Positions 18,538 to 53,164 of a stretch of 63,310 nucleotides of DNA are shown piece after piece (within the stretch, counting starts at the first letter, position 1; every line of letters begins with the position of its first letter). Made by a program: the position numbers and the translations under genes. A model generated the notes under the pieces. The model did no database searches. It was not told where the DNA came from and was given only the letters and a program-made list of their open reading frames with translations. The stretch covers positions 1 through 63,310 of the forward strand of contig JAQGDQ010001095.1 in the NCBI GenBank assembly GCA_030141605.1. The letters are read 5' to 3'. Source of the DNA: Tubiluchus corallicola. Lineage: Eukaryota; Animalia; Priapulida.

Positions 18538-20255
18538 CGAGCAAGAGAAGATGCCTGTTATTGCACAATCTGTGGTTACTTTCTGACGTAAGCAATGACT
18601 AAATTGGCACGGGACACTTGGTTAGCGAAACCAAAAGTTTATTTTTGTTCATCACAGCAATTAACACACTTCACTCTGATTCATTCTTAACTAATTATTT
18701 AAGTGAAAAGGCTTAAGTGAAATGCGTTTGCAAGTAACATCAGCGAACTAAATAAAATCGCTTTCTCATCTTGTTCTTGCTCCATTTTCAAGTTATGACC
18801 AGTGTCTGGCGTTCGCGTACAACGTCTAGAAGCCAGAAAGAACGTATATATTGTCAACACAGCAGTGTGTGATGAAACCAAAAATTTCAGCAGCGTCTAG
18901 AAGCCAGACTTGAAAAGCTCTTCCTATTTTTGAGCGTCTTGCGTCCAGCGTCTGTTCCTCAACGAGCTAAAAAGGACCGGTCCTGCGCATTCTTACACGA
19001 ATAAATGGCGTAGAAAAGAGGAAACATTGAAAAATAAATTTGGCATTGTCCATTTTGTTTTTCTGCGAAGAGTAAAAAGAGATTGAACATCAGATGCTCT
19101 TTCGTTACCTGTTTGTTGTGAACAATAGAAGCTGGCAGTTTTGGAGTATCATAAGATTTAACCATTGCTATTGTTCTTCGAGATTTTGTTTATGCTTACC
19201 ATACAATGAAGGATTGCTTTCTGCCCCGCGATAATTATAACCTTCATATAAGCCTAGGGTTTCATATTCAGCAAAGAAGCCATTCTGAGTCAGGTCAGAG
19301 AATAGCGTTGGTTGAATGCAGATATATTCCATTGGCTTCGCACGTGACACGTACCCAGTGTTGTAATACACAACTTACAGAAATAAATAATTATTTGAGA
19401 TTTTAATTTTGCAGATTATCAAAATTTAATATTAAATTAAGTACCACGCAATCACTAAATTTGTGGGAGCAAATTACGTATAAAAAGTTAGATATGGACT
19501 TAGATTTGTAGACTGGACATTTGATTTACAATTTCAGTGCAATGACAATTAAACTACACAGACCTTGTCTTAACTGAAATCAATGCAAGGTTTAATTCTA
19601 TCCTAATAATTGGATTGTTCTACCAAGATTGATCACAAAGGTCTAATGTGGTGCATAGTGGTCATTGCATCGGTACCTGGATAATGTCTCAACTCGCTCT
19701 CATTTCTTCCTCTTTCATATTTTCTAGTTTGTTATTTTGCAGTGGTCAGGAATAGTTGGCGAACCATCTTGTTAAAACTCGAGTTCTTCGCTCGCTGAAG
19801 TTGCAAGTTAGATCAGTGCTCTATTAAAATAACTCAATTCATGCTGTGCTCACAATTTTTTCCATAAATCAAGCAAAATTAATTTCATAACATGATAATA
19901 TTACATTCTTTCTATTTTGGCTGAATAAATTTTGCCTCAGCTTAAGCGTGGTCCTGTGTAACAAGCTGAACCTAATAACTAATTACATGGAAGCCGTATG
20001 AATGTAATGTAACTGTCTTTATTATAATGTAATCATACTAATAAGGGCTCTTCAAGGTGCTCGGTAATTTTCCTACACTTGCCGGAAACGGAACCTACGT
20101 AATTTGTAGCACTATTATTCAACCGCAATTATCAGTGAAGATTAGCAATTTTGACTGACAGATATCAACAATGGCAATTTGCTTATAAAAATTATCATAA
20201 ATTGGTAAAGAGGAGAATGCTGCAGTTAGGACTAGAGAGAATTTTCTTTTTTCAA

Positions 20256-23200: not shown

Positions 23201-24387
23201 GGCTGACTTGTCGTCGAACCGGAGCATGTAGTTAAACACAGAGAAGGCTGACTTGTCGTCTAACTGGAGCATGTAGTTAAACGCAGAGAAGGCTGACTTG
23301 TCGTCTAACCGGAGCATGTAGTTAAACGCAGAGAAGACTGACTTGTCGTCGAACCGCAGCATATAGTTAAACGCAGAGAAGACTGACTTGTCGTCGAACC
23401 GGAGCGTGTAGTTAAATGCAGAGAAGGCCGACTTGTCGTCGAACCGGAGCATGTAGTTAAATGCAGAGAAAACTGACTTGTCGTCGAACCAGAGCGTGTA
23501 GTTAAATGCAGAGAAGGCCGACTTGTCGTCGAACATGAGCATGTAGTTAAACGCAAAAAAGGCTGACTTGTCGTCGAACCGGAGCATGTAGTTAAATGCA
23601 GAGAAGGCTGACTGGTCGTCGAACCGGAGCGTGTAGTTAAACGCAGAGAAGGCTGACTTGTCGTCTAACCGAAGGATGTAGTTAAACGCAGAGAAAGCAG
23701 ACTTGTCGTCGAACCGGAGCGTGTAGTTAAATGCAGAAAAGGCTGACTTGACGTCGAACCGGAGCATGTAGTTAAATGCAGAGAAGGCTGACTTGTCGTC
23801 TAACCGGAGCATGTAGTTAAACGCAGAGAAGGCTGACTTGTCGTCCAACTGGAGCATGTAGTTAAACGCAGAGAAGGCTGACTTGTCGTCTAACCGGAGC
23901 ATGTAGTTAAACGCAGAGAAGGCTGACTTGTCGTCTAACTGGAGCATGTAGTTAAACGCAGAGAAGGCTGACTTGTCGTCTAACTGGAGCATGTAGTTAA
24001 ACGCAGAGAAGGCTGACTTGTCGTCTAACCGGAGCATGTAGTTAAACGCAGAGAAGGCTGACTTGTCGTCCAACCGGAGCATGTAGTTAAACGCAGTGAA
24101 GGCTGACTTGTCGTCTAACTGGAGCATGTAGTTAAACGCAGAGAAGACTGACTTGTCGTCGAACTGAAGCATGTAGTTAAACGCAGAGAAGGCTGACTTG
24201 TCGTCTAACCGGAGCATGTAGTTAAACGCAGAGAAGGCTGACTTGTCGTCTAACCGGAGCATGTAGTTAAACGCAGTGAAACTGACTTGTCGTCCAACCG
24301 GAGCATGTAGTTAAACGCAGTGAAGGCTGACTTGTCGTCCAACCGGAGCAGGTAGTTAAACGCAGAGAAGACTGACTTGTCGTCGAA
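20256..24387. repeat. 45-bp tandem repeat (~92 copies)
   Basis: Unit atgtagttaaa(t/c)gcagagaag(g/a)ctgacttgtcgtc(g/t)aac(c/t)ggagc. Confidence 0.97.
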
Positions 24388-24699: not shown

Positions 24700-27030
24700 A
24701 TTAATTAATTACACTACAATTTGAGTTCGAGTCATTACTTTATCATAGCAGCCATTCACTAACTCCTCCTTAGTAATCCTTTCAAATTCTGCTTAACTAG
24801 TTATATCCTAAACTGATTCATTGTCTCTTCTGTTTTCTTTCTTTCTAATATTTCATTTTTGCTAACAAATCATTCTAAGGAGTTCTGTCTTCAAAGTGAT
24901 TTGAGACATATTGGCATGTTGGGAACAAGATTTAAAATAATCATTTATGGACCAACAGACTAAGTTTCTCAGTCTCAGGTGATAATTTTCTTCAAATATT
25001 GTGTAATTGTTACGATATATGCAATATGTGTTGTGTCGAAGTAAAAAATGACTGAACTTGAGCAACACGAAGCCTGGCCAGTAAATGAATGGTGACAGTC
25101 GGGAAAACTACTTTACGGCAGTTTCTTTTGCCATATTGCTCTCACAGTATTTATCTCAAAGAGGAAGGAAGTGCACACACCTGAAGTGACAAGACAACTT
25201 TAGCAGGTCATCTCACTTTAGAAGATTATCTGCCATGATAATCTGGATTCCGGTCCCACCACAACCAATAAGTACACCATGACAGCGATAACCAAGTGGT
25301 CAAGGTGAGTGCTTAGGGACCGATATTAAGCAACGTCAAGCCTGGACAATAGGAATCACTGCCATAAGAACTGCCTCTAAGCGACTTTCTTTTCACAGTG
25401 GTCGCATCTACTTCCATCATACACAAGGATCAATTAGTCACACATGGGGTAATAAATCAAGGGTTGAACGAATCCTCTAGAATTAAATATATTAAATAAC
25501 TTGATTGATCAAAATGAAATGAAAAAATCCAGAACTGGTACTGGATTTCAATCACGCACCTTCAGATTATACAGGTGAAACATTTTGTTATACTATTAGC
25601 CACATAGCTTTTAATAATCAAAAATGTCTTCATTCAATCCTAATAGCTTCTCACCTGATGCAACATATCCGATATAACTTTATTACATATTAAATGAGCT
25701 AAGATTTGTTAACTTGACAAATGTTACAGAAGCAAATGCTTAAATTTTTAAGAAAAAAGGGAATAAAATTGATACATTACCTGACACAGTTGATCGGCAT
25801 ACAATTGTATTTCCAACACTTGGTTGCTTTGTCTTTTGCGGCATCCTCTGCTTTGCGATTGCTGAATCTTGAGTTAGCTTGTCGTATTCGTGATCAGCAC
25901 CAGCTGATGCACGTGAACAGAAGCAGAAAAATGAATATTTCTTCGATGGCTCTGATACTTCAATATACCAATTCCTTCTGTCTAATCAGGGATGAATACA
26001 GATTTTAGAACAAAGGTGGGCCCAGCATGAAAGCAGTTAGGGTGTCTAGGGTGGAGCCCCATCCAACAATGCACTTTGCTGTATTTTTGTGCCTGCTAGA
26101 AGCAATTCCTCAAGGAAGTTCACTAATTTAGAGCAGGTGTTACCCAACAGATGGCTCTTTCTTGCTATTATTATGAAATTTTATTTTAAGCGATAGTTTT
26201 TGTGTATTAAGTAACTTCCATTCACAGGCTATGCACTGACAAGCTCCATTGCAGAATTATAGGCAGTAACTGCTCAGCACGACTATCAGAATTACCACTT
26301 CAGTATACAGAAATGAAAACGGTAAAGTAAACTCATTTTTACTGCAGATTTAATAGCAGTATCTTTAGGCTTTGCTTCTCTTTTCATGCAATTCTCAAAA
26401 GCAAAATTTTGTAGTTACTGCCCATTATTTTTGCAAGGCAATATATAGCTCAGTGAAACTGCATTAAATTTACTGATAAATGTTTAAAAAACTCCAAAAA
26501 AATAAAATAACAATAGAAACCTACCCCCACGACAAGCTTGAATGATAAATATTTTTGGTTTCCCAAGCAAATCCACAGCTCTGTGTCCTAAGAATTCATT
26601 TATTATTATCATTATTTACCATTCACCATTATATATATATATATATATATAAAAACATTGATGAAGTCAAATTAACCAAATAAAAGAATTGCTGTATGAC
26701 ACCTTGAAAGCTTGGCTTTTCAAGGTGGCAGAAATGAGTGAATGAAAGAATGGTTAGGGTTAGTAGACATGATGGAATGGAAAATAGTAAGATTAGGGAC
26801 AAGAAGAAGGAAGGGAGGAGAGGATGAGTTAATGAAAGAATGGCTAGGGTTAGCAGACATGATGGAATGGAAAAAAATAGTAAGATTAGGGATAGGAAGA
26901 AGGAAAAGAGGAGAAGAAACGATCACAGTGCATGTTTAATTTACATAGAGCTATATTAAAACAATTGACTGGAGGCCATATATTGCGACTGCATGAGACA
27001 TGCAAGCATTAAAATGTATTATAAGTATGA
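24700..27030 (-). pseudogene. Partial direct duplicate of the caspase-STING gene interior (copy of ~34228-36886) with the QACRG exon (26587-26525) and linker exon (25903-25781)
   Basis: Near-identical over ~2.3 kb; both exons keep open frames and splice sites; no THG or SWR exons found nearby. Confidence 0.85.
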
Positions 27031-28968
27031 CTTGAAATCTAAACAAAAGTTAAATATAAACAAAATAACGTTATTTATATGTGACAATAAATGAAATGGT
27101 ACATGTCAAATAAATCTGCATAACAATAGCATCTTGAACGCTGCAGAGGGGACCACAAACAGGACTACATAAAAATGTACCACATCTTGCCGCAAAATTG
27201 GTCAGCATAGTCAGATAAAGTTCAAAGGATTTAATTCACACTCTCCACCACATGCCAAGCTTACTATTAAAAAGACACTTTATTTTTTCTCCTTTACTAT
27301 GAGTATAGTATGATGATAAATTCAAAATAAATGATTGCTCATTGAATGTGAGTAATTATCAAAAAACAAAGAACAAAAGTTGGCAAATTACATGTATTGA
27401 TAATCTTGATCTTAACAAGTTAACAAATGAACAAACGCATGTCATGACGATGGTAACGAACATTACTGGGAAATCTTATTCTTACTGCAGACGTAGCTTC
27501 TTGTGCTTTTTCCGCCTTTACTAAAATTGTGTATATATCTATTGCTAATGATAGTAACTGGAATAATCAGGAATATACATATATACACGTATTAGAACCA
27601 TTATTCGTTAGTCGTTATCATTTCCTGCTTACATTACACTAGTGCATATTCTGCATAATGCTCTCCTTAAAGAGATTATAATACAGCTTGGTATTGGTTA
27701 CACTGGCAGACACTAAGCGATTTTTCTTTAGCAGTTCTTCTTTTAACAGTTTCTAAGTGACACTGGCCGACATTTTTTATACAAAATATTATCTTATAGC
27801 TCTTGACCGAGTTTACCTAAAGTACATATACTTAGATATCTATTTTAATACATAAAAACTAGTTTAGTGCTTCACATTATGGATTTTTAAGAAGAATGAA
27901 TTCAGTTTTAATCACATTTTTCTAGGAAAGCAGTCAATACGTTTATCATTGATAATAAATAACAAAAGTAAACTAAACATGGCCTGACTAAACTAATTAG
28001 ACGACATTGGCATCAGACAAATGAGGAATACGACTTTCTTGCGATTGTTCCATGTTCATAATCACTAGGTAATTTTGCGTATAAATACACTTATAATCAA
28101 CAATGCACGAACATCCTACATAGTCCTCATTTATAAAGCAAAGCCAGTAGCAGCTTTTACTGAATTAAAGTTATAAGGTTATAGACAGAGTACAGACTGT
28201 ATAATGGATGACGTCAGAACAATGGTTTTGCGTCAGCAGTTTTCCAAGCGAAAATCGTGCGAAATGGAACCTCCAACCAACTCATTACAGCTCCTCAGGA
28301 AGGAAGCATCCTAAAACATAGCCCAGATCATCGTGTCGCCCTGTTCTTCCTCTTTCTAAAGAGCTATATATCTCCTTTCGAGAGTCCCACCAGGTGCCGC
28401 TAGAACGTTTTTCTACAGGCCATTTGGTCAAAATTTCGAAAAAATCCGGAATTGGGTCCAGGAAAATGTCCGTTACGGGACGCCGTGGCCCTCTCGCGAA
28501 TTCTAAATATGCCTATTACACCCACCGCTGAACAGGCTATCTATCCATACCCAGCACCACCATCGGCCCATTCCTGTTCTCCAGAAGTAAGAGATATACG
28601 TTTTGCAAAAAACGGCCAAAAAATGGCCATTTTTGGAGCTTTTTTGCCCCCCCCCCCTCCCCGTTCCTCCCGGTGGGCCCGATTCGAAAAATAAATGTCC
28701 AATGGCACGAAACTGGGTCGAGACCTCTTTTTTGATATATAGATCGCCACAAATGGTGCCGTCGTCCGAGCTGTAGCCTCGAATCTTATATATATATATA
28801 TATATATACGAGCGAAGTTAATATATACGATATATATGATAATTATACTATAATATGTATAATATTCGTATAATTAGTTGCGGTTGTGTCATAAAGTCGA
28901 TGACTACCTGTACTAGAAAGAAAATTAATTCTGCTATCATAAGTTTTTTGCACACCATGATTTAATCA

Positions 28969-29427
28969 TTATTTTCCTTCCCCCAAGCAAGAATGCTGTA
29001 CTGCAAAAATACCACGCAATTCGGTCACAAGCGGCGGCCCAATAGTTTTACGCGTGTCATTGTAACTAACAACTTTATAATTTTTCTCCAATATGGTGTT
29101 CTCGTCCAGCAAACTTTCCAGTCTAATGCAGAACTGCTCATAGAATGTGTTGAGCAAACTGTCATCTAGCACTCCATGATCTCGCATGTATCTGAGGAAA
29201 CGTAATGGCGTAGCAAATTCAGCAATAAAGTAGTCGTCATCCAGCTTGTATACTGTACTGTGCCCAACGTATCTCTGCTTATCTGAAAGACAGAACTTGG
29301 CAGAATCTCCCTGTAGACTGTCTAGGTTGCCCTTGACTTCAATTTCAGGTACGTTTTCCAGTGAGTCGAGAACAATACAGGATGACGGAAGAAGAACCAG
29401 CAGTTTGTTGATAGTAAATTTAACACC
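28969..29427 (-). CDS. STING-like domain 2 core, terminal exon
   Basis: GVKFTINKLLVLLPSSCIV...HSTVYKLDDDYFIAEFATPLRFL...FYEQFCIRLESLL...YKVVSYND, ending in TAA; in frame with the ORF-track ORF 28969-29187. Confidence 0.88.
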   Translation of the reverse strand, partial: GVKFTINKLLVLLPSSCIVLDSLENVPEIEVKGNLDSLQGDSAKFCLSDKQRYVGHSTVYKLDDDYFIAEFATPLRFLRYMRDHGVLDDSLLNTFYEQFCIRLESLLDENTILEKNYKVVSYNDTRKTIGPPLVTELRGIFAVQHSCLGEGK

Positions 29428-32400
29428 CTGTTACGAAAAAGTAAAATTAAAATCAAAAAACAAAATCGTTAAATTGACTAAAGATGCTTATATTGTTGCG
29501 TTTTCTCAAAAAAAAGATCCATAATCATAAATCGTCGTCCTGTTTTTTGTCAGAAAGAATTATCCAAAAATGTTGGCACCAACTCAGTGAATGCTAGAAG
29601 GGCAAAAGCTTGAACTTGGTCACCACAGTTTACATGCAAAATAGCTGAAGTGGCAAAGCACATCACTTGCAACTGAATCCAAAGATGTCATTAGAAGTCT
29701 TCCTTGGTATGCAATTTTTTAACAAATAAATAATGAGATATTTACTAGTAATTCGTTTTAAATTAAGTAAAATGGCTCAAACCTAATGATTTTCCCACTT
29801 ATAGTTTCACTAGCTGAACAAAAAAGCTCCTACTAAGATATTTATAAAGAAAAAACATTCTCTTAGTTATACTTTTCCTCATATAAGTAAATTGGTACTT
29901 GAAGTTCAGTTAATCTATACACTAAATTAAAACCAAGACCTAAATTAAAAAAAGCAATAACATCATTAGATGGATGGAAACCTCCAGATACATTCTTCTA
30001 TAAGCACAAAATAGGTGCCAATACTGTCACATTTGCCTTAAGATGCTGCCAATGCAGTGCCATTTTGCTCAGCTTCATACATTCTAATAAAATTTACTAT
30101 GAAATGAACCTTTTCAGTGGTTCTTTAAACATTTTCTGGATTATGCAGATTTTGGAAATCATTTCCTTGTTGTCATTCCTGTTCTGTTCGTTGTGTGTTT
30201 TGGTGCCAATAACATTGCAATGTCATTTTAGAAAAATAAACAACTTGGATAGACAAAGGCTTAAAAACAACAGATGTTTAACTATTAAAATCTCTTCATT
30301 ACAATGTGCAGTCACTGGATTAGCACAGCAGTTAAAAGAGACTAATACTATAAACAACACAGTTCTATTAGTGATGCAAGATTATACATGTTGCATACCT
30401 GGTCGTCTGTTTCCATCAGTTCATCATCCTCATCATCGTCATCATCACTGTCTGACTCGACATTCTGCTGTGCACCTGGCCGTTTAAACTGATTCAAACG
30501 CTCTTGAAGATTAATTGAATAATTGTGGAAATAATGCCCAGCATACCTGTACCAGAAAAAGTGCAAGTTGACGAACAAGTTGAATGTCATTATAAATTTG
30601 ACAATTATAAAAGTTAAATTTTAATACCAGTCATTAGAAACTTTGCACAATCTAGCACATGACTTGAAGGAAAAAGTCATACAGACCTTTCTGCTATAAG
30701 AAATCCAACTGGCATCTCAGCAGTAAGATTAAAATAACTAGCATCTGACTTAGCCACCCATGCAGGTAAATCCCAGCCAGTGCCTGGACCCCTCAAACAG
30801 GAACCCACGTTGGGCTTTTCGAACTGTTTGCAAGCTTCCTTTAAGACAGCTCTAAGTGTCTCCTGTTCATCGTCATATGGTAGCAACACAAATGGAATTG
30901 ACTCAGCACGTTCCTGTGTCACAATGTCTTGCAACGTCTTGTGAAATGCAGCTACCTCTCCTAGCTGCTGTCGGATATTGTTAGTGTTGGCTGGAATGGC
31001 TTTTATAGCACTCGGGTAGTCCACTGCAACATAGAATTTCTTCTCGTCCGGCCCGATAGGCCATACCGTAACTCCGTATTTTCGACCTTTCATGCCGGCC
31101 ATATCTTTTGTAATGTTGAACACATGAGCAGCTTCCTTAAACTTGTCAATTTCATCAGAAACACGGCTTCCTAGACAGCTTTGTGAATAGACAATAATTT
31201 GTTTCGGGATGACATGCTCCAAACTTTTATCAGTCTCTTTCCACTTTGATATCTCTCGTTCAAAGTCATCCTTGATAACTGCAGGATAACCAATCCAGTG
31301 CCAGTAAGCAAGTGCTATACCTAATCCTACTGGATCAGTTTCCTAAAAAGTTTTAGACTTTACAAGGAAGTGAGATAACGGTTTTCATAACGCTGTTGTT
31401 CAGAAAAATTGTAAACTACATAACAAACTTTAAAAATGCTGATTATTAATTTTAAATATTATACACAAAATGTATCTATTGCAACAAGTATTGATAGTAC
31501 AAAAATGTAATATAGGACTTATATGCATCTTACAATGCGAAATTGGGCACTTACAAGTGGTGGATTGAAAAATAGTCTTTTCATCAATGAAGACTCCAAT
31601 TCGGGAACTTGAGTATCAGGATCCTTCTCAAAACCAGCAAACACTTGACGATGTACCTAAAACAACGCACTTCGATGAATATTTTAATCTGAGACTGTTC
31701 TCAGCATGTCAATACCTTTCTGGTTCTTAGGGGAAAAGTTGCTATCCCAACTTTGGTTCTAATGTGTGCCACACTAGCTAATATACATGGTTAGTGTACT
31801 AACAGCAAGCAATGAAAAATAATACTAGACCGTGTTTATGACAAAGTCATAAAGTAAGTCAAAACTTAAGATTCTGCATTAGAGCTAAAATTGCAAAGTT
31901 CTGCTGACTGTGAAAAATCTTTCTTGACTTGATCTTTGTCTCAAGATCATAATTTTTCTGTTGCTGAATTTTCCGTACTTGATTACCTTGAATATATATA
32001 TATAAATATATACTCCCTCCTGTACCACACTGTGGCTACGCAAGTTAAGTGCGCACCCTGAAAGTTTCGTGATTCTAGTTCTTACACTTATGGAGTTATT
32101 GACCAGACCCCATTTTAACACTCTCGCTCATGTCACGTGACCTGGCGAATGCCCACTTTTCAAAAAATACTTAATGCACATCTACTCTAGCCCGCTTACT
32201 TACATATACATAAACCACGGCTCTTAGTTTAAAACTATAAGATCAGTTGAGTGACAAAGTTATTCGACCTAATTTTCACAGTTTGGGTCCTGCTGCTGTG
32301 GCCTTTGACCCTGAGGTCAGAATATTAATTATCTCCAAGATCCTCAAAACAAACTAGTAAAAAGAGTTCTACACCTAATGCTGTGTACAATTAATGCTGT

Positions 32401-35400
32401 GTAATGCTGTGGTACTGCAATTAATATAAATCTTTAGCTTTGTAGAAATATGTCAAGCATGACTGCTGCCAGCTGGGAGGATGTTCCTCCTCTTGCAGGT
32501 CACGCCAAAATAGTTGTAAAATTGGGGAATGCTGATAAAAAGCATCTCTTTTTACCCGGAAAGACAAAGGAGCGAGAGCATACAAATGAAAATGGTGAAT
32601 CACACAGACCACTACAAAATAAGCTACATCAAATGCAAGAATTGACTGTTACTGCCTTCAGTGTCTATGGCTACGTGTGAGTTTACTCTCACAGTTTCCA
32701 TGGTGAACAGAAAGTTTTCGTCCAGGCAATTTTTTGTAGTTTACTTTAGCTTACTCTATTTATTTTTAGTGCATGGTAAGTTATTTTTAGGGTATTATAT
32801 GATAATTTTACATAAAAGGTGAATTGAATGGAATTTACCGAGTAACTACGATCATGCAAATCAAACGTGCTCATTAATACTTAACACTTTGCACAGAAAA
32901 GTTAGAATGCTAAGCATAGCATCAATAAAGATCGACGCAATCATTGTAATATTAAATGTAAATAAATTAATTAAAACAATAAATGTAAATAAATTAATAG
33001 CTAACTGATCTGTATCTTCCTTTCGATTTTGGTTTATCAAATTGGTTTATCACTTTGCACTCCACATTTGCTGTAATCGCTTTGCAACTTCGCATGACAT
33101 TATTCCTTATAATGGAGTCTGTAAACCCTTATTATTAATAATATTTAATGGCTGCCCATTGACAGCAATTGTTTTTGCATTAGCACCAGCAATAGCTGTA
33201 GTTTGGCAATGGTAGCTCATGTTTGGACAACAGTGTTTCTTTTTTAACATTTTGGACTCATTTCCTACTGGTTCACTGTGTTGTTTTTTCACTGCTTCCT
33301 CAAATACAGAATGATACATTTATTCTCTACTCAATGTAGCAGACGTGTACCTGTGCACACTGCAAGCGAAGGTTTCCCACATTGCGTTTTAGTCATCATG
33401 TTATCGCAATCCTAAATAGTCTATTTTCTAATTAAATAATTTAAATATCTCTTGTTTCATTAAAACTTATCTGACATGTTTATTCAAAAGCATTTTCAGG
33501 AAGGTCGTTAATTGTTAAGAACTGGTTATCAAGCATTAGTGATAACAAGTATTATGCAGGATTAATTATTGAAATGTACTACTAGAATTTTTGGATCCGG
33601 GACCCAGGACAATTTTTGCCCGTTCCGGTGCACCCTTAGCATTAACTCACCCTAGTCATTAATTCATGAATATGTAGACAGCTAGCATTCTGCGCAAACT
33701 CTGTCACCAGTTTTCTGATGAACGACGTACCCTCAGTTTCAGACCTCCATGAAACATATCCTGCACAGCCAAAAACAATGTTAATGAAAAATTGGTAACA
33801 TAAAAATGGATTTTTCTATCATTTGGGGCTCTAGAAAGCTGTAGTAGCAGTGTTATCATTACGTCATTATGTCAAGACTTTTGCTACCTTACTGTCGATC
33901 AAAACTGGCTAAACATTCTATTACATATATAGGATACACATTACATTACACATATACATCATTAAGGTACACTTTAAATCTTACTATTAAATCTGCTATA
34001 TCAATCAAAAGTTTTAAATTATGTTATTAGTCAGAAAAATTTAACAATTATCATGATAACTAGTGTCTTAATTTGTCTTGATTAATACATAAGAAGATAC
34101 ATCATTATCATATTAGCAGGATCAGTACTTAATTGCAGCTTAATGAGTCTATTGTTATTAATACAGATCCAAATAGTGAACTTTACAGCAGCACAGAATT
34201 TCATTGAACTAAAACCTGATATAATATAATTAATTACACTACAATTTGAGTTCGAGTCATTGCTTTATCATAGCAGCCATTCACTAACTCCTCCTTAGTA
34301 ATCCTTTCAAATTCTGCTTAACTAGTTATATCCTAAACTGATTCATTGTTTCTTCTGTTTTCTTTCTTTCTAATATTTCATTTTTGCTAACAAATCATTC
34401 TAAGGAGTTCTGTCTTCAAAGTGATTTGAGACATATTGGCATGTTGGGAACAAGATTTAAAATAATCATTTATGGACCAACAGACTAAGTTTCTCAGTCT
34501 CAGGTGATAATTTTCTTCAAATATTGTGTAATTGTTACGATATATGAAATATGTGTTGTGTCGAAGTAAAAAATGACTGAACTTGAGCAACACGAAGCCT
34601 GGCCAGTAAATGAATGGTGACAGTCGGGAAAACTACTTTACGGCAGTTTCTTTTGCCATATTGCTCTCACAGTATTTATCTCAAAGAGGAAGGAAGTGCA
34701 CACACCTGAAGTGACAAGACAACTTTAGCAGGTCATCTCACTTTAGAAGATTATCTGCCATGATAATCTGGATTCCGGTCCCACCACAACCAATAAGTAC
34801 ACCATGACAGCGATAACCAAGTGGTCAAGGTGAGTGCTTAGGGACCGATATTAAGCAACGTCAAGCCTGGACAATAGGAATCACTGCCATAAGAACTGCC
34901 TCTAAGCGACTTTCTTTTCACAGTGGTCGCATCTACTTCCATCATACACAAGGATCAATTAGTCACACATGGGGTAATAAATCAAGGGTTGAACGAATCC
35001 TCTAGAATTAAATATATTAAATAACTTGATTGATCAAAATGAAATGAAAAAATCCAGAACTGGTACTGGATTTCAATCATGCACCTTCAGAATGATAATC
35101 TGGATTCAGGTCCCACCACAACCAATAAGTACACCATGACAGCGATAACCAAGTGGTCAAGGTGAGTGCTTAGGGACCGATATTAAGCAACGTCAAGCCT
35201 TCTGATTATACAGGTGAAACATTTTGTTATACTATTAGCCACATAGCTTTTAATAATCACAAATATCTTCATTCAATCCTAATAGCTTCTCACCTGATGC
35301 AACATATCCGATATTCCTTTATTACATATTAAATGAGCTAAGGTTTGTTAACTTGACAAATGTTACAGAAGCAAATGCTTAAATTTTTAAGAAAAAAGGG

Positions 35401-38400
35401 AATAAAATTGATACATTACCTGACACAGTTGATCGGCATACATAAAATTGATACATTACCTGACACAGTTGATCGGCATACAATTGTATTTCCAACACTT
35501 GGTTGCTTTGTCTTTTGCGGCATCCTCTGCTTTGCGATTGCTGAATCTTGAGTTAGCTTGTCGTATTCGTGATCAGCACCAGCTGATGCACGTGAACAGA
35601 AGCAGAAAAATGAATATTTCTTTGATGGCTCGGATACTTCAATATACCAATTCCTTCTGTCTAATCAGGAATGAATACAGATTTTAGAACAAAGGTGGGC
35701 CCAGCATGAAAGCAGTTAGGTTGTCTAGGGTGGAGCCCCATCCAACAATGCACTTTGCTGTATTTTTGTGCCTGCTAGAAGCAATTCCTCAAGGAAGTTC
35801 ACTAATTTAGAACAGGTGTTACCCAACAGATGACTCTTTCTTGCTATTATTATGAAATTTTATTTTAAGAGATAGTTTTTGTGTATTAAGTAACTTCCAT
35901 TCACAGGCTATGCACTGACTAGCTCCATTGCAGAATTATAGGCAGTAACTGCTCAGCACGACTATCAGAATTACCACTTCATTATCTAGAAATGAAAACG
36001 GTAAAGTAAACTCATTTTTACTGCAGATTTAATAGCAGTATCTTTAGGCTTTGCTTCTCTTTTCATGCAATTCTCAAAAGCAAAATTTTGTAGTTACTGC
36101 CCATTATTTTTGCAAGGCAATATATAGCTCAGTGAAACTGCATTAAATTTACTGATAAATGTTTAAAAAACTCCAAAAAAAAACAATAGAAACCTACCTC
36201 CACGACAAGCTTGAATGATAAATATTTTTGGTTTCCCAAGCAAATCCACAGCACTGCTACCTAAGAATTCATTTATTATTATCATTATTTACCATTCACC
36301 ATTATATATATATATATATATATATAAAAACATTGATGAAGTCAAATTAACCAAATAAAAGAATTGCTGCATGACACCTTGAAAGCTTGGCTTGTTAAGG
36401 TGGTACAAACGAGTGAATGAAAGAATGGTTAAGGTTAGTAGACATGATGGGATGGAAAATAGTAAGATTAGGGACAAGAAGAAGGAAGGGAGGGGAGGAT
36501 GAGCGAATGAAAGAACGGTTAGGGTTAGTAGACATGCTGGAATGGAAAAAATAGTAAGATTAGGGATAGGAAGAAGGAAGGGAAGGGAGGATGAGTGAAT
36601 GAAAGAATGGTTAGGGTTAGTAGACATGATGGAATGGAAAATAGTAAGATTAGGGATAGGAAGAAGGAAGGGAGGGGAGAATGAGTGAATGAAAGAATGG
36701 TTAGGGTTAGTAGACATGATGGAATGGAAAAAATAGTAAGATTAGGGATAGGAAGAAGGAAAAGAGGAGAAGAAACGATCACAGTGCATGTTTAATTTAC
36801 ATAGAGCCATATTAAAATAATTGATTGGAAGCCATATATTGCGACTGCATGAGACATGGAAGTATTAAAATGTATTATAAGTATGAATCAAAAATTGTCC
36901 TTTTAAAGTACTTTTTGAAACTATAAATAGTTTTGTGTATTTTTACTTGGGCACTTATTTTATTCCAGTTGTTGGGGGTTGTGAATTTAATAAAGTGAAC
37001 CCTAAACCTATATCTGTATACTTAGATGGGAACTAAGTCTAGACTGGTAGGGGTGTCCTAATGAAACGGGAAGCTTTGGCTTCGACACAAAAACTGAAAA
37101 AAATCAGTCGTACTTTAACCATGTTTCGGATTATGGTACATTATTTAAGAATGCCGTTAAAGCAATATCATTATCATTAAGCAATGCCATTATATGTACT
37201 TTTCAAATAATTAATGGCCTACCACTAAATAAAGGTAAAATCTGCACAGAAAAGTCCAAATGGCCGTCTCTAGTGAGTAACAGGTCACCTTTGTCGCCAT
37301 GGGTTAGTATTGCCACAACACATGAATCAACACTACGATGCTTAGTATCTTGCGCAAACTTTTTAATGACAGACAGCGTATCCTGAAAAAAAAATTGCAT
37401 AAGTATAAATAGCAGTGATACTATCAAAATATCCGTGCAACTTTCCAAAAGAGAATTATCTGAATCCAGTATTTGAACACAAAAACTGGCTGTAAAGAAT
37501 ATTGAAATAGTAAAAAATCTGGTGGATTATTAACACTCAGGTTAGATGCACCTTGAATGTTTACAGCTGGTCTCTATAATTTACGATGTTCAGAAGTGGA
37601 GATGTGCTGGTACTGCTTCTTTGCCAGACAACAATCCCTACAGATGCATCTCTGCAAAACTTAAAATAGTTTTCAGCATGAAAAGTTACCAAAGTTTGCA
37701 GCAGCAAATGACTTTTTGATTTTAGGCAAATTATAAAGAAAAATTTAATCTGACAATCATGAAAACTGTATGCTTGTACTATGCAACAAAAACAGATGGT
37801 GTGTACCAAATGCAGTCAATGAAAACCAGAATTTGTTACACTACAGGCCAGCCAAAGTAATGTATTAATGTTTCTTGATAGCAGTATCTAAGCATTTACA
37901 GTAATAAGTTACTATTGTTTTATTATTACCCAACAGTGCTACAAGCTTTACAGTTTCTGTATTCAGCACGTTGTCGTGAATAGATTTATGAATCGATAAT
38001 TTGGAGATAAAATCGGATGCCTCCCTGATTAGATGATTTGATAAGATAAATTTATTGATTAATAGAGGAACTCCTCCAGCTGGTGAGCACGGATTTAATG
38101 AGAAGCAAATTATTCTACAGAGGTGTTTTGTTATCATTTGCTGAGGGTAAACAGGCGTCTGTTCAGTGAGGACATAATCGTTCTTTATAGCCCTATGCAG
38201 AGTTGCACTTAATTAACAGAAAAGTTGCAATAGGCAAATTTCTTTGGATTGGCCAAGCTTGTATCGGCGCTCGAAGATGCCAAGCGAAGAGGTTCTAAAG
38301 AATCGCAGATAATTGGGATCTTTCTCGTGGAGCAGAAAAACTCGAAGGCCACCATAAATCGCCCGGTAGGGGATACCAGGGTAATTCAAGGATGTCACCT

Positions 38401-41358
38401 GTCGCCTGATGGCATTTGGCGCGAATTTCGCAAGGCCAAGCTCTTCGGGATATAAGCTCTGAGCTGGGAACATGAGTGAGTTAGTCGGGCGTGAGTCAGT
38501 GAGCGGACATTGAGAGAGTCAGGAGCCAGAGAGAGGCGACACAGAGAATCTGACAGGGAGCGGAGACATCGTTTGACACCAGCGTGGAACAGGTCTACGT
38601 CCTCAGCAGATCGACTGGGCACTGGATCGATGAATAGTCTCACAATACCATTGGAGTTGACCAAGTGTACGAGAGTTGCATTGCGGTCATTCCACCGAGT
38701 TAAGTAATCTTAACGCATTTGTAACTGAGAGTAACTCTGCATAACTGTAGTTCACATTGTATTAAGCACCTTAAGTGCAGCATACTGAATATTTGTTAAG
38801 TGAATTGCTTGAGTATCTTTTTGGAGCTATACATTAGTTGTGAACGCCTACAAGCGTGTAAGGACAAATCTTGTACAGCTACCTAGATAAAAGTAAATTT
38901 GTAAACCAATAAAGCTGATTCACTTTGACGTAACTTATGAGTTCATGTATGCTTTAAAGTGTTTGAAGTTAAGCAACACAAAATCCGACATACGATCCTG
39001 TAGATTCGCATTGCATTAATTAATTAGATAAAGCTCAATTGCGGGAGCTAGGCTAGATAGCTTTAGGACGAAAGACTTTACTCACAACGTGAAGTCGAAG
39101 TGTCAGTCTTGAGGGACAAGATTATTGCCCGATAGACTCATCTAAAGCCCTAGGTAGCAATTAATTATATAGGAAGCGAATCGATTAAATTATTATACAA
39201 ATTACTTGAATACTATACGATCACAAAATACAAAATAAGAAAGTGATAACGTAATCTGTGGACTTCATAATTATACAGGCTTGAACAAACAAAATTTCAT
39301 CTGATCAGTTTGACTGTATTTGCACTTGCCCTGTATCATACCTTAGACGTCAGATTGGACTGCGTGTCAACAACGTATCCCAGTTGGTCAAACAAACTCC
39401 TTAGCTTTTCTTCGTCCACATCAGAACCTTTTCTAGTTTCTGGTTTGCAATCAATACCACAACAACCTTTTCTTACGTCAAACTCAACCATATTAATGAT
39501 CAAGCAGTAGCCACGTGGTTCGGAACCCATGCGATATACCTAATAAGTAACAACATTTGATAACAACAGTTTGCCAAGCAACAGTGACAAATCTCATGAC
39601 TTATGCTGTTTGAGACACATGCATTGATTAGAAATGTTAAACATATGCAGTAGTTAAGTGATGACCTCATGTAACAACACTAGAAATGTGGGTCTGTATT
39701 GCACAGGTTATACAGTAGTGCATGCACAGTTGGTCCAGAACGTGTAAGTTATGTGGCAACATACAAAATGTGGGGCCTAACGTGAAAATCATGACGTAAC
39801 CACATGAAATATGGACCGAGAATGTGCAGATTATGGAATACTGACTTTATTGATCCTACTGACCTCTGCTTAATGTGGAGCTGCCGAATAACCAAAACCT
39901 ACCTTCACTAAGCTTGTTCTGTTTTGAACATCAATATTGCAGATCTGCCATGGGGAGTTAAATAACATTCTGACACACAACCAGCCACATTTATTGGATG
40001 ATGAATGACCGGTACTTCTGGAAGGTTGCTTAAAGCATTAACAAGATCATGCGCATCTTCGCTAGTTTTGAAGAAATATACAGTTTTGTTGTGTGTTTGG
40101 AAAAAAATAGTAATTTAGTAATGTGGAATTAAATCAAATAAGTTAAACTAAGAAATCAAAACAATTTTTTTTTAAAATCTATGTTCAAAATGTTTTTTTT
40201 ACATTCCATCAAAGTGGCAAAATATTAATCAAAAAGACAGAATTGTTGCTATACAGAGAAGACACTGTGAATACAAATGGAATGCATCACAGACACCTCT
40301 ATGTAATATTTGCTTCCCGAATCTGTTGAGGCTTCTCCTAAATTTCAAACACAGATAAGGTCTAACTCCATGAAGAGACTGCATGATTGCCAACCACAGG
40401 TGCATCACACTGAGCAACAGCACCTCTATGTAATATTTGCTTCCCGAATCTGTTGAGGCTTCTCTTAAAATTTCAAACACAGATAAGTTCTAACTCCACG
40501 AAAAGACTGCATGATTGCCAACCACAGGTGCACCACACAGAGCAACAAAATACTAAACTGCCTACCTCACAGTGCTCTTTCATGTATAAAGCATTAACAG
40601 GCAACTTTTTGCATGCCACCTCAGACATTTCAAACATGGCTGACTTGGCCTCAGGGTCATTCCATGTCAATTGACCAAAAATTTTGGATCATCTACACCC
40701 GACCATTTTGTATTTTGATGAAACTTGGTGCGATTATTGGGCTTTTTGACAATATTTTATGTTCAAAATTTTGGGTCAATTGGTCCACCCATTCAAAAGT
40801 TATGACAATTTGAGATCTTGAGCTTTTCACACTCTTTCGCGTTAGCCCGAAATCTCAAAAATCCATATCTCAACACCTACTGAATCAAAATGCATGTGAG
40901 AGGTGTTGTTTTAATCAGAAAAAATACCTAGAATCCAAATCCAAGCTCAAATGTAAATCTATCTGATGATTTTCAGTTGATGAACTTTTAACCCAGGTTT
41001 TGACCTTGACCTTGAGACCCCTGGATAAAAAATCCTTGACCAGCAAGTTAGTGAGGATGTTGGAGAAGTGTTACATGTGTATTTGTATCTGTAATTTGTG
41101 ATAATTACAAATTGTCTTTATTTATTATTATTATTCACAAAGTAACCAAAAGGGAATATTTTTTATCAGACTTAGGAAAAGTAAACCCACTGACAACTGA
41201 GTAATTTATTTGGTTGTTTTTACGAACTTAATAACATGGCATGCGACATCAAATTAGTAACTCACATTTTCTTGAGGTGGACTCCCATATCTTGCATTCA
41301 CTCTTGTCCCTTTCAGCACCTTGACGGTAGATGGAACATTGCCACCTCCAGTTGCCAT
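28969..41358 (-). CDS. Caspase (peptidase C14A) fused to two tandem STING-like CDN-binding domains; 10 coding exons, ~703 aa
   Basis: Exons (minus): 41358-41266, 39539-39342, 37382-37223, 36260-36198, 35582-35460, 33760-33651, 31656-31555, 31342-30687, 30546-30399, 29427-28969. Total 2112 nt = 703 aa + stop. All introns GT-AG with matching phases (0,0,1,1,1,0,0,2,0). Caspase motifs: YRMGSEPRGYCLII, RKGSDVD, ILTHG, GKPKIFIIQACRG, STVSGYVSWR, QVPELESSLMKRLFF. STING-like motifs: LAYWHWIGY, AGMKGRKY, VAVDYPSAIKAI, FHKTLQDIV; then KLLVLLPSSC, STVYKL, IAEFATPLRFL, FCIRLESLL. Confidence 0.88.
30399..30546 (-). CDS. STING-like domain 2 N-terminal helices plus acidic insertion (RYAGHYFHNYSINLQERLNQFK...DSDDDDDEDDE)
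   Basis: cag/gtatgc boundaries, phase 2-0; NLQERLNQFK resembles STING ELQARIRTYN. Confidence 0.8.
30687..31342 (-). CDS. STING-like domain 1 and start of STING-like domain 2
   Basis: 656-nt open exon. Manual alignment to the STING ligand-binding domain: LAYWHWIGY ~ LAWSYYIGY; AGMKGRKY ~ AGIKDRVY; VDYPSAIKAI ~ LEYATPLQTL; FHKTLQDIV ~ FCRTLEDIL. Confidence 0.85.
31555..31656 (-). CDS. Caspase C-terminal exon without a stop (VHRQVFAGFEKDPDTQVPELESSLMKRLFFNPPL)
   Basis: Q.PE..S.L.K.L.F caspase C-terminal motif; ends in gtaagt donor at phase 0, leading into the STING exon. Confidence 0.88.
33110..33410 (-). mobile_element. Possible decayed hAT transposase fragment (intronic)
   Basis: IAVNGQPLNIINNKGLQ weakly resembles the hAT I..D..P..VE..GF motif; interrupted by stops. 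Confidence 0.3.
33651..33760 (-). CDS. Caspase small-subunit exon (GYVSWRSETEGTSFIRKLVTEFAQNASCLHIHELMTR)
   Basis: GY.SWR....G(S/T).FI motif; cag/gtgagt boundaries. Confidence 0.93.
35460..35582 (-). CDS. Caspase intersubunit linker and start of small subunit (AGADHEYDKLTQDSAIAKQRMPQKTKQPSVGNTIVCRSTVSG)
   Basis: 123-nt exon, phase 1-1; candidate processing Asp (TQD/S); ST..G motif of the small subunit. Confidence 0.85.
36198..36260 (-). CDS. Caspase exon with catalytic Cys (GSSAVDLLGKPKIFIIQACRG)
   Basis: 63-nt exon, ttag/gtaggt boundaries, phase 1-1. Too short to appear in the ORF track. Confidence 0.95.
36410..36770. repeat. ~90-bp purine-rich tandem repeat (4 copies; 2 copies in the duplicate at ~26735-26910)
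   Basis: gagtgaatgaaagaatggttagggttagtagacatg... repeated, intronic. Confidence 0.85.
37223..37382 (-). CDS. Caspase exon with catalytic His (DSCVVAILTHGDKG)
   Basis: D.C.V.IL(S/T)HG motif; poly-T cag acceptor; donor gtaggc at phase 1. Confidence 0.92.
37972..39086. mobile_element. Probable solo LTR (~1.1 kb) in a caspase intron
   Basis: TG...CA termini flanked by 4-bp duplication ACGT; GC-richer than the flanks; internal TATAA and AATAAA. Confidence 0.65.
39342..39539 (-). CDS. Caspase large-subunit exon (VYRMGSEPRGYCLIINMVEF...RKGSDVDEEKLRSLFDQLGY...NLTSK)
   Basis: Classic caspase N-terminal motifs Y.M...PRG.CLIIN and R.GS..D...L..LF..LG; ag/gtatga boundaries. Confidence 0.93.
40293..40547. 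repeat. 128-bp tandem duplication
   Basis: cacctctatgtaatatttgcttcccgaatc... occurs twice. Confidence 0.85.
41266..41358 (-). CDS. Caspase-STING gene, probable first coding exon (MATGGGNVPSTVKVLKGTRVNARYGSPPQEN)
   Basis: Acceptor tttttcag, then CCATGG context, open frame, donor GTGAGT at phase 0 joining VYRM. Further upstream coding exons cannot be excluded. Confidence 0.7.
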
Positions 41359-41858: not shown

Positions 41859-42316
41859 CTTACTGGGTCCACTGTCAGTGCTGCTAGTCAGTTAATTCCA
41901 ACTTGCATTATAAATATATCACCTAGCTGACATATTCGAAAACAAGAATATACAACAGTCTAGACATTTCGTTTAAATATGAATTAGCTGCACACTGTCA
42001 ATTTACTGTGAGTAAAATTTCTAAAAGTTGATATCTTGGTGATGGTGATTTATGTCCGAGAATTGCTATAAACAATCCAAGTGTAGTAGTGACCTGTGTG
42101 GAAGTTGTAATTGTACATTTTAATTAGGTGCTGCCATCTATGAACTAATCCTGTTACATTCTACCAGCTAACTTACCCCCAGTATAATTGTACGGACCAG
42201 TGAGTGCATATTCACTGGTTCTCTCCCTATTTTAAAGTAATGGTTTTTGTGAAGCCTTTGCAAGTCTGCATAGGTCAAGTCCTATACCTGTATATACTGA
42301 CTGTTTTTACTTTCTA

Positions 42317-43983
42317 GTCACTCTCACTCTCAGTGTTCAGTGCAGGACTCTCACTCTCAGTGTTCAGTGCAGGAGACTCTCGCTCTCAGTGTTCAGGACT
42401 CTCAGTGTTCAGGACTCTCACTCTCAGTGTTCAGGACTCTCACACTCTCACTCTCAGTGTTCAGGACTCTCACTCTCAGTGTTCAGTGCAGGACACTCTC
42501 ACTCTCAGTGTTCAGTGCAGGACACTCTCACTCTCAGTGTTCAGGACTCTCACTCTCAGTGTTCAGTGCAAGACACTCTCACTCTCAGTGTTCAGGACTC
42601 TCACTCTCAGTGTTCAGTGCAGGACACTCTCACTCTCAGTGTTCAGGACTCTCAATCTCAGTGTTCAGGACTCTCACTCTCAGTGTTCAGGACTCTCATT
42701 CTCAGTGTTCAGGACTCTCACTTTCAGTGTTCAGGACTCTCACTCTCAGTGTTCAGGACTCTCACACTCTCACTCTCAGTGTTCAGTGCAGGACACTCTC
42801 ACTCTCAGTGTTCAGGACTCTCACTCTCAGTGTTCAGTGCAGGACACTCTCACTCTCAGTGTTCAGGATTCTCACTCTCAGTGTTCAGGACTCTCACTCT
42901 CAGTGTTCAGGACTCTCACTCTCAGTGTTCATAACTCTCACTCTCAGTGTTCAGGACTCTCACTCTCAGTGTTCAGGACTCTCACTCTCAGTGTTCAGGA
43001 CACTCACTTTCAGTGTTCAGGACTCTCACACTCTCACTCTCAGTGTTCAGGACTCTCACACTCTCACTCTCAGTGTTCAGTGCAGGACACTCTCACTCTC
43101 AGTGTTCAGGGCTCTCACTCTCAGTGTTCAGGACACTCTCACTCTCAGTGTTCAGGACTCTCACTCTCAGTGTTCAGGACTCTCACTCTCAGTGTTCAGG
43201 ACTCTCACTCTCAGTGTTCAGGACTCTCACTCTCAGTGTTAGTGCAGGAGACTCTCACTCTCAGTGTTCAGGACTCTCACTCTCAGTGTTCAGGACTCTC
43301 ACTCTCAGTGTTCAGGACTCTCACTCTCAGTGTTCAGGACTCTCACTCTCAGTGTTCAGTGCAGGAGACTCTCGCTCTCACTGTGTTCAGTGCAGGAGAC
43401 TCTCGCTCTCATTCTCAGTGTTCAGTGCAGGAGACTGTCGCTCTCATTCTCAGTGTTCAGTGCAGGAGACTCTCGCTCTCACTCTCAGTGTTCAGTGCAG
43501 GAGACTCTCGCTCTCATTCTCAGTGTTCAGTGCAGGAGACTCTCGCTCTCATTCTCAGTGTTCAGTGCAGGAGACTCTCACTCTCACTCTCAGTGTTCAG
43601 TGCAGGAGACTCTCACTCTAACTCTCAGTGTTCAGTGCAGGAGACTCTCGCTCTCACTCTCAGTGTTCAGTGCAGGAGACTCTCGCTCTCACTCTCAGTG
43701 TTCAGTGCAGGAGACTCTCGCTCTCAATATCAGTGTTCAGTGCAGGAGACTCTCACTCTCAGTGTTCAGTGCAGGAGACTCTCGCTCTCATTCTCAGTGT
43801 TCAGTGCAGGAGACTCTCGCTCTCAATATCAGTGTTCAGTGCAGGAGACTCTCGCTCTCATTCTCAGTGTTCAGTGCAGGAGACTCTCGCTCTCATTCTC
43901 AGTGTTCAGTGCAGGAGACTCTCGCTCTCACTCTCAGTGTTCAGTGCAGGAGACTCTCGCTCTCACTCTCAGTGTTCAGTGCA
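42317..43983. repeat. Compound 22-35-bp minisatellite built on ctctcagtgttcag
   Basis: Directly visible; it produces the overlapping low-complexity ORFs here. Confidence 0.95.
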
Positions 43984-44361
43984 GCAGTCATTCTATCCAT
44001 GTGTCTGTAGTTTTAATAAACACTTTTCTGTTTTGTGCAGTGCAAATATGTATTAAAGATTTTTTTATTCTTGTTCTACAAGTGAGTGATCTACAACTTC
44101 AAACATGACTTTCACAACCTGCATGTTTGTGCAAATAAATCCATTTTTAATAATGGCCAAATCGTGTAAGCCGGAAAGTCGTAACAACAAAAACTTTAAA
44201 AATAACCCTAACATACACGTTTGAAAACAAATTAACGGACACACCCAAAATCAGGCAGCACGAACAGATTAGAACATTGCCCGTCGGAAGACCTCATACA
44301 TTCTTGCTCCACCGGAAGACCTCATAAATTTTCCTGCGCAACTAACTTACAAACACATGTT

Positions 44362-52640: not shown

Positions 52641-53164
52641 ATGGTGTAGTCCGAAGGAAAGCGGAGCGATACGTTTGGCACCAGGTTGGTTGCAGGAGCT
52701 GCTGGAGGCAGTTATAAATGTGATATTGTAATTTGTATCTATTAGGACTACAGCCTAATAATCCCATAAGTTAGTATATAGGCTGCAGCCTAGGGCTAGA
52801 CATGTACACACCAAAATTAGCCGTTAAAATGATCGTAATTCAGAGGAAGCATCAATACGCATCTTCTAACTAAACTCTTTGCTCAACTTAACTGCCGACA
52901 GATGGCAGCACTACACAGTATACGGCCTACGTGGCCTAGTATTGAGATGCTACAGCAAGAAACAGAAACAGAACAAATGAGCCACAACAATCAGATCTTA
53001 TTATATTAATAATAACAAACATTTTCTATGAAACAAATAATAATAATAATAATAATCTTTATTTAAAGTCTGCTTTTGGGTCAACAATTAACATTAGCCC
53101 AAAGAGCTATTATCGCCGACTGTAAATAACAACCTACAACTACATAACAGATACTATTATTACC

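Follow-up and report, generated by a model that had tools for sequence, protein, structure and literature searches.

A predicted caspase–STING–STING fusion gene in the priapulid Tubiluchus corallicola

Introduction

Can an animal caspase be tied, within a single polypeptide, to the STING domains that elsewhere sense cyclic dinucleotides? The question is raised by a stretch of 63,310 nucleotides from the priapulid Tubiluchus corallicola (assembly GCA_030141605.1, contig JAQGDQ010001095.1, positions 1–63,310; hereafter the window), in which an initial interpretation made from the nucleotides alone (the sequence-only reading) had proposed a gene that joins a complete caspase domain to two STING-like domains and couples nucleotide sensing directly to proteolysis. 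To our knowledge, no animal caspase is switched on directly by a small nucleotide. Our analysis identifies caspase–STING–STING as a real, conserved and apparently undescribed effector–STING fusion, visible in RefSeq only as uncharacterised proteins. We hold it very probable that a single spliced gene encodes the fusion and, given the fusion, reasonably likely that the protein is gated by a nucleotide.

Fusions of STING are known from several lineages. Described partners are transmembrane (TM) and TIR domains and, in bacteria, deoxyribohydrolase, alpha/beta-hydrolase and trypsin peptidase domains (PMC10732462). STING is also fused to PNP in fungi (bioRxiv 2025.09.04.674280) and to TRADD-N in a coral (PMC8195603), and an oyster protein combines two STING with two TIR domains (PMC11103948). 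A literature search aimed at the architecture described here, with most subscription journals outside its scope, gave no description of a caspase–STING fusion among the matches listed, of which one, on lung injury, contains the phrase STING-caspase, and the five supplementary text files of PMC10732462 do not mention caspase, Peptidase_C14 or Priapulus. The earlier suggestion that the architecture is undescribed in animals stands for the papers listed, but the architecture is not unique to this genome, as uncharacterised RefSeq models of the same kind exist in Priapulus caudatus.

Gene structure and the caspase–STING junction

With both strands of the region read, the gene extends on the minus strand from an ATG at 41358 to a stop codon ending at 28969 (Table 1). 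The ten phase-compatible exons of the sequence-only reading were recovered: they comprise 2,190 nt, encode 729 amino acids with zero internal stops and are separated by nine introns, all of them GT..AG and compatible in phase. The alternative acceptor of exon 5 at 35582 leads to a 703-residue form, with which a homolog from the Logan collection (P0001, see below) aligns slightly better; the long form fits the Priapulus residues following QACRG, and the exon end fits Priapulus in either form. An end of exon 5 at 35499 was rejected because it loses the strand preceding SWR, which the end at 35460 restores.

The join of 31555 to 31342 is inferred. The splice sites of exons 7 and 8 fit the consensus, are in phase 0 and lie 212 bp apart, exactly as first read, with no poly(A) signal between them. 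The earliest in-frame ATG of exon 8 corresponds to residue 390, within STING domain 1, so that exon 8 needs an upstream partner. The original statement that the last caspase exon has no stop is correct for the spliced exon but not for the unspliced one, as translation into a retained intron 7 ends after 12 codons; retention would yield a caspase-only product and to this extent speaks against the fusion. In genomic DNA, a contig from one of four public DNA runs (X1–X4) bridges the junction: the X3 contig covers 31064–31598 with 27 differences from the window, and the linkage is therefore present in another haplotype or copy too. Run X4 was considered as an RNA run and rejected, since it covers introns and has no splice joints, as DNA would, though 0.30 of its words, about the exonic share, would have fitted RNA. 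Runs X5 and X6 (the latter a guessed RNA run) matched repeats only.

Neither CARD nor DED, the prodomains of initiator caspases, is found in the predicted protein, which has an N-terminus of 31 residues. No death-fold family matched any of the 72 open frames scanned upstream and in intron 1, a scan that covered the sequence up to 56.7 kb apart from three repeat blocks and six of the 69 upstream frames, low-complexity ones near 48.3–48.8 kb. Just before the ATG lie a pyrimidine tract and an AG at 41361, and a further upstream exon may for this reason exist; the homologs begin at roughly the same place as the window protein. A TM helix was not found either, the highest 19-residue hydropathy (1.62) falling on a STING beta-strand, and there was no STING_TM and no TIR match in the scanned exons or the homologs. 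The absence of CARD, DED and TM segments noted at the outset is thereby upheld, with the reservation of the possible upstream exon. A family-profile scan of 1,962 frames of the window revealed no STING or caspase exon besides this gene and a partial duplicate of it.

Homologs of the fusion

A search with exon 8 among longer proteins resulted in one match among 753 candidates, the unnamed Logan protein P0001, which has 655 residues, contains PF00656 and two PF15009 stretches and lies on a contig of 2,188 bases. Because 2,188 bases leave no room for introns like those of the window gene, this contig is most likely a transcript. P0001 is 40% identical to the window protein over residues 11–721 of the latter, and the alignment runs through the junction in register. 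Further searches gave three matches among 5,338 candidates, six in a representative library and five among 7,996 scored proteins, and uncovered six models of Priapulus caudatus, three with caspase and STING domains and three starting within the caspase small subunit. The former are the RefSeq models XP_014670077 (LOC106811066) and XP_014664583 (LOC106806925) and the model of LOC106806933. One representative-library match, the Prymnesium leucine-rich repeat protein P0005, was discarded as a spurious repeat match.

The Priapulus models and P0001 share with the window protein the order caspase–STING–STING, the junction, the asymmetry of the two STING domains and an acidic insertion in domain 2, at 30–40% identity across nearly the full length, but are themselves automatic predictions without name or function. 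They also differ in detail: the catalytic His and the linker are missing from P0001, and Lys replaces Arg238 in domain 1 of Priapulus.

The caspase domain

The profile check suggested by the sequence-only reading came out in its favour for both parts of the protein. Pfam PF00656 (C14) exceeds the cut-off on exons 2, 3 and 6, is just below it on exon 4 and has no match on exons 5 and 7 alone, and STING_LBD passes on exons 8 and 10. Exon 7 alone also matches no solved structure. The catalytic dyad (His125, Cys169) and both S1-pocket arginines (Arg67, Arg244), all described as intact beforehand, were located in the motifs THG, QACRG, RKGS and SWR, which the family profile aligns with caspase-3 and CED-3. 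CED-3, caspase-2 and caspase-3 are the best-scoring solved structures for the family caspase, and the AlphaFold model of P0001 has a caspase fold (Z 19.2, root-mean-square deviation (rmsd) 3.0, 193 aligned residues; caspase-9, 1jxq).

Three features bear on how such an enzyme might be regulated. An Asp-Ser or Asp-Ala pair occupies the same linker site in the window protein (Asp210-Ser) and in three of three caspase-bearing Priapulus models, which makes Asp210 a candidate self-cleavage site. In the dimer strand, the position of caspase-3 Val266 is Glu296 in the window protein and Asp in Priapulus; the V266E substitution renders procaspase-3 active without cleavage (PMC2805924). Finally, STING helix 1 begins only about six residues past the dimer-interface strand, which ties the sensor to the dimer interface. 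At the S4 position of caspase-3 Trp214 the window protein has Ser, and a preference for DEVD is accordingly not assured for the predicted enzyme.

Catalytic residues are not kept throughout the family, and this weighs against a general protease function. His and Cys are both retained in two of the four caspase-bearing homologs: in P0001 the catalytic His and the second S1 Arg are missing, and the isoform P0011 is without the segment that holds the Cys. Proteolysis is therefore, as judged from these residues, not universal among caspase–STING–STING proteins.

The tandem STING domains and their pocket

The two STING domains score 41.1 and 42.2 bits with PF15009 STING_LBD (cut-off 27). Exon 8 matches oyster TIR-STING (6wt6) with an E-value of 2.6e-8, and exon 10 matches coral STING (8gjz) with an E-value of 0.028. 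Domains 1 and 2 are 14% identical to each other, 52–54% identical to their counterparts in P0001 and about 30–39% identical to those in Priapulus. In a tree of 23 domains, which includes seven outside domains only and carries long-branch warnings on its deeper joins, the first domains all group in one clade (100/99), as the second domains do in another (100/99). From this separation, the tandem STING module is, on present sequences, one that arose once and specialised early.

AlphaFold models had been proposed as a check and were evaluated for homologs. Besides the caspase fold of P0001 they show the STING fold of domain 2 (Z 14.7, rmsd 3.7, 161 aligned, 6nt5; Z 12.1, rmsd 3.3, 140 aligned). 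Domain 1 was modelled at low confidence, and the structure matches listed were taken up by the other domains; the support for its STING fold comes from sequence matches. Foldseek with the P0001 model listed only caspases, and the ESM Atlas returned for whole P0001 only caspase clusters (score 0.80) and nothing usable for the STING part. Prediction of a complex of domains 1 and 2 of P0001 scored 0.00 in two runs, made with neither folded controls nor an alignment and with a partner of uncertain fold.

To describe the pocket, we compared the 16 STING domains of eight family members with seven outside STING domains. Positions follow human STING, in which residue 162 lies near the two-fold axis. 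The assignment of pocket residues to the family relied on a list of cyclic GMP-AMP (cGAMP) residues (PMC4117786) and on motifs from mouse STING. Tyr167, Arg238, Glu260 and Thr263 are reported to be required for cGAMP recognition (PMC4117786). In all 16 family domains, position 238 is Arg or Lys, position 260 Glu or Asp and position 263 Thr or Ser, and 11 of the 16 have Tyr or Phe at 167; the window protein has Tyr, Arg, Asp and Ser in domain 1 and Tyr, Arg, Glu and Thr in domain 2.

Several other positions weigh against binding of an ordinary ligand. Ser162, a residue of the binding pocket (PMC4381552), is replaced by Trp in eight of eight first domains and by Arg in eight of eight second domains, whereas Ser, Gly or Gln stands there in the seven outside domains. 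None of the 16 family domains retains Arg232 (Met and Ser in the window protein), Tyr240 is exchanged for Val or Ile in all eight second domains (Val in domain 2 of the window protein), and Tyr167 for Leu in five of the six Priapulus first domains. In place of Gly158, domain 1 has Ala or Thr and domain 2 has Leu; human STING with G158A is active without ligand (PMC12217682). To these points must be added that both AlphaFold models are models of homologs and of low confidence (mean predicted local distance difference test 54 and 47). Of the small residue at 162, Arg232 and the aromatic residue at 240 that together mark a canonical cyclic-dinucleotide pocket, the window protein lacks the first two in both domains and the third in domain 2. 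The changes could hinder a standard cyclic dinucleotide, and the initial view of both domains as ordinary cyclic-dinucleotide binders hence fits the equivalents of Tyr167, Arg238, Glu260 and Thr263 but not positions 162 and 232, nor position 240 in domain 2. As the remodelling is both conserved and asymmetric, it suggests a single-chain pseudo-dimer whose ligand may be something other than a standard cyclic dinucleotide, or which may bind none.

Proposed mechanism

We slightly favour the prediction of a soluble nucleotide-gated protease, in which ligand-driven STING assembly would dimerise and activate the caspase. Pairing would take place between STING domains 1 and 2 of one chain: STING functions as a dimer, a linker of about 30 residues could be long enough to bridge the two, and Trp opposite Arg at the two-fold axis fits a pair of unlike domains better than a pair of like ones. 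An immune nucleotide, possibly other than a standard cyclic dinucleotide, would bind the asymmetric pocket through the equivalents of Tyr167, Arg238, Glu260 and Thr263 and close it, and liganded units would then pack side by side, by analogy with TIR-STING filaments. Such packing would bring the caspases together because the dimer-interface strand ends so close to STING helix 1. The caspase dimer would be active, possibly without cleavage in view of the acidic residue at the caspase-3 Val266 position, and the linker may be cut at Asp210 with the small subunit remaining tied to the STING part. The output might be cell death, or the caspase might cleave a signalling substrate, for instance a Relish/NF-kB precursor; fly DREDD cleaves Relish, so that the output need not be death. 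As part of this mechanism, and with the same slight preference, the protein may be regarded as the fly STING-FADD-DREDD relay collapsed into one chain. The induced-proximity mechanism of the sequence-only reading is in this sense a reasonable proposal, for which TIR-STING filaments, SAVED-CHAT and the fly relay offer precedents.

The pocket itself provides the case for a different reading of a real fusion, namely that the STING pair, its pocket floor filled by Trp and Arg, no longer binds nucleotides and acts as a ligand-free scaffold, restraint or decoy. The caspase would then be held off until a protein signal (an upstream STING oligomer, a pathogen anti-STING factor or cleavage of the acidic loop) releases or clusters it. 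Trp and Arg at 162, the loss of Arg232 and the changes from Tyr240 to Val and from Gly158 to Ala or Leu all fit this account (PMC12217682 for position 158), as does Glu at the Val266 position, which confers uncleaved activity in caspase-3 and would call for restraint (PMC2805924). The second STING domain moreover has many differences in its lid region among copies, as a pathogen-facing surface might show. However, all 16 domains, in proteins that are only 30–38% identical, still have Arg238, Glu260 and Thr263 or similar residues, and a dead pocket does not obviously need them. Loss of nucleotide binding is on balance rather unlikely in our estimation, and nucleotide gating remains the reading we follow.

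Extended to the whole family, that reading would make these proteins an old animal family of one-chain nucleotide-activated caspases, with an asymmetric two-STING pocket for a second messenger not yet known and catalytically dead paralogs as tuners. In animals, the family would then parallel the CARF-to-SAVED fusion and bacterial sensor-protease effectors. We offer this extension tentatively, as it is less probable than nucleotide gating of the window protein.

Sequence variation and the remaining alternatives

Variation was taken from runs X1–X4, in which alleles and paralogs are mixed, and all figures refer to the best-supported differences listed. Six of the eight scorable length changes in exons keep the frame (+3, +6, −1/+1, +15, +15 and +39; one further joint could not be scored), and the two exceptions, −1 at 31106 (X3) and +1 at 39364 (X4), each occur in a single low-depth contig. 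None of the nine listed length changes in introns is a multiple of three. Exons 8–10 show 31 substitutions, 23 non-synonymous, 8 synonymous and none creating a stop; the non-synonymous to synonymous ratio per site is about 0.8, which is compatible with relaxed constraint and in this respect counts against a maintained function. The lid region of STING domain 2 (residues 617–636 in the 729-residue numbering; also listed as 604–623 to 673) has many amino-acid differences among copies. A preserved frame combined with fast residue change is what would be expected of an immune family, and relaxed selection would be compatible with it as well.

The gene is also present in more than one form. The partial duplicate downstream of it (Table 1) contains no other exons, lies outside the coding model and differs by a few amino acids ahead of QACRG. 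In other copies or alleles, exon 7 has an extra 39 bp in frame at 31638–31639, within the loop that precedes the last caspase strand; run X2 shows this insertion as a joint, and runs X1, X3 and X4 show it as loose ends. Priapulus is likewise longer there. At 30473–30607, two X1 contigs have depths of 194 and 390, which suggests three or more copies in that sample.

These data bear on whether a once-functional fusion is decaying in this copy, which would belong to a multi-copy family with fast turnover and relaxed selection. Decay would account for the ratio of about 0.8 among the 31 listed differences, the partial duplicate next to the gene, the catalytically dead or truncated relatives and the two frame-breaking indels in single low-depth contigs. 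We nevertheless consider it improbable: 729 codons are free of stops, nine introns are intact and all catalytic residues are present, the 31 differences include no stop and six of eight exonic length changes are in frame, while the ratio itself derives from best-supported differences that mix alleles with paralogs. Finally, two adjacent genes, one for a caspase and one for STING-STING, or a chiefly caspase-only transcript that keeps intron 7, would fit the stop 12 codons into that intron and the Priapulus models P0002, P0009 and P0012, which begin inside the caspase small subunit and have STING matches only, but are highly improbable given the in-phase splice consensus, the 212 bp free of a poly(A) signal, the lack of an early ATG in exon 8 and the four homologs that cross the junction in a single reading frame.

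Relation to known systems

The architecture resembles that of the TIR-STING proteins, bacterial SfSTING (PMC9402430) and the oyster protein of structure 6wt6, in which a soluble enzyme likewise stands directly N-terminal to a STING domain and, in filaments, the fused enzyme is activated (PMC9402430). The oyster structure is the best solved match to window STING domain 1, and the tandem TIR-STING repeats of Lingula (P0007) and scallop (P0006) show that tandem STING domains occur in brachiopods and molluscs. In contrast to all these, the effector of the window protein is a caspase, and its STING domains adjoin without an effector between them, are 14% identical and have a remodelled pocket floor. 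The scallop protein (P0006; Ylistrum balloti, XP_060080375) has four TIR-STING units, of which domains 1 and 3 are alike and domains 2 and 4 are alike, the latter two without Arg238; by its sequence it is a second case of alternating unlike STING domains.

In Drosophila, STING oligomers recruit the caspase DREDD through FADD, and Relish is cleaved (PMC13144350). STING oligomers uniting a caspase for immune output is also what we propose for the window protein, but the fly pathway uses three proteins, death-fold contacts and a membrane-bound STING, whereas the window protein is one chain with no death fold and no TM segment. Moreover, the window caspase is closest among solved structures to CED-3, caspase-2 and caspase-3, set against the DREDD route of the fly.

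In prokaryotes, SAVED-CHAT forms filaments driven by cyclic triadenylate (cA3; bioRxiv 2023.06.23.546230), and the type IV Thoeris caspase is a nucleotide-gated protease of caspase fold (bioRxiv 2024.10.24.620036). The merging of two CARF domains to give SAVED allows asymmetric ligands (PMC8204762). This merger is a precedent for the pseudo-dimer proposed here, as SAVED-CHAT and the Thoeris caspase are for nucleotide gating of caspase-fold proteases. SAVED-CHAT, the Thoeris caspase and trypsin-STING have in common with the window protein that sensor and protease share one chain, and with the gating proposed for it that a nucleotide activates a protease. They belong to other sensor or protease families and sit in operons, whereas the window gene is an intron-containing animal gene for an Asp-type caspase with STING.

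If the proposed mechanism is true, STING in animals would be more than a signalling adaptor: as happens in bacterial defence, it would set off a protease fused to it, and a single protein would correspond to the STING-FADD-DREDD relay of the fly. The remodelled pocket would make a concrete hunt for a new animal second messenger feasible, since the soluble protein, given a fluorogenic read-out, would itself serve as the biosensor. Use as a ligand-gated protease tool is also possible.

Table 1. Exons, junction intron, pocket residues and partial duplicate of the caspase–STING–STING gene.
Feature	Position in window	Strand	Content
Exon 1	41266..41358	minus	Start codon; N-terminal peptide of 31 residues, aligned with the P0001 N-terminus; no Pfam match
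Exon 2	39342..39539	minus	Start of caspase large subunit; S1-pocket Arg67 (RKGS, 39434); Pfam C14 E 3.4e-7
Exon 3	37223..37382	minus	Catalytic His125 (THG, 37304); Pfam C14 E 4.7e-5
Exon 4	36198..36260	minus	Catalytic Cys169 (QACRG, 36213); Pfam C14 E 6e-4, 20 bits (cut-off 21.4)
Exon 5	35460..35660	minus	Inter-subunit linker with candidate self-cleavage site Asp210-Ser; small subunit strand 1; alternative acceptor 35582
Exon 6	33651..33760	minus	Small subunit; S1-pocket Arg244 (SWR); Pfam C14 E 1.3e-4
Exon 7	31555..31656	minus	Last caspase strand (dimer interface); Glu296 at caspase-3 Val266 position; ends FFNPPL, no stop
Intron 7	31343..31554	minus	212 bp, GTAAGT..TTTTTAG, phase 0; caspase–STING junction; no AATAAA or ATTAAA
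Exon 8	30687..31342	minus	STING domain 1 (residues ~313–489), ~30-residue linker, beginning of STING domain 2; STING_LBD E 1.6e-10
Pocket residues of STING domain 1 (exon 8)			Trp323 (Ser162 position), Tyr328, Arg396, Tyr398, Asp417, Ser420
Arg528 (Ser162 position, STING domain 2)			Codon spans the exon 8/9 join
Exon 9	30399..30546	minus	Remainder of STING domain 2 helix 1 and acidic insertion; Tyr533
Exon 10	28969..29427	minus	Remainder of STING domain 2 and stop codon; STING_LBD E 7.3e-11
Residues of STING domain 2 (exon 10)			Arg629, Val631, Glu647, Thr650, Pro651
Partial duplicate of intron 3 to intron 5	24702..27030	minus	Copies of exons 4 and 5 with intact splice sites; 94–99% identity

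Other features of the window

Within intron 1 of the gene, a 62-codon exon-shaped open frame (39899–40096, minus strand) has a pattern like that of an RNA recognition motif (RRM), with a weak match to the CELF RRM (E 0.17) and none in Pfam. An AG is missing at its start, and two stops lie just ahead of its GTAGGT donor; it is possibly a decayed exon, or a product of chance.

A retrotransposon fragment (reverse transcriptase and RNase H), several tandem-repeat blocks and a high-copy repeat are distributed over 8951–9340, 20100–24310, 28071–28780, 42236–44108, 51600–52770 and 58844–59832, the high-copy repeat being situated immediately downstream of the caspase–STING–STING gene. Further away, an exon on the minus strand (12849–13613) matches ANF_receptor (E 3e-19) and reads as part of a putative metabotropic glutamate receptor-like gene. 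On the plus strand, a frame of 206 codons at 56647–57267, which has no Pfam family, contains repeated tyrosine motifs (NSIY, NSLY) and resembles the cytoplasmic tail of a receptor.

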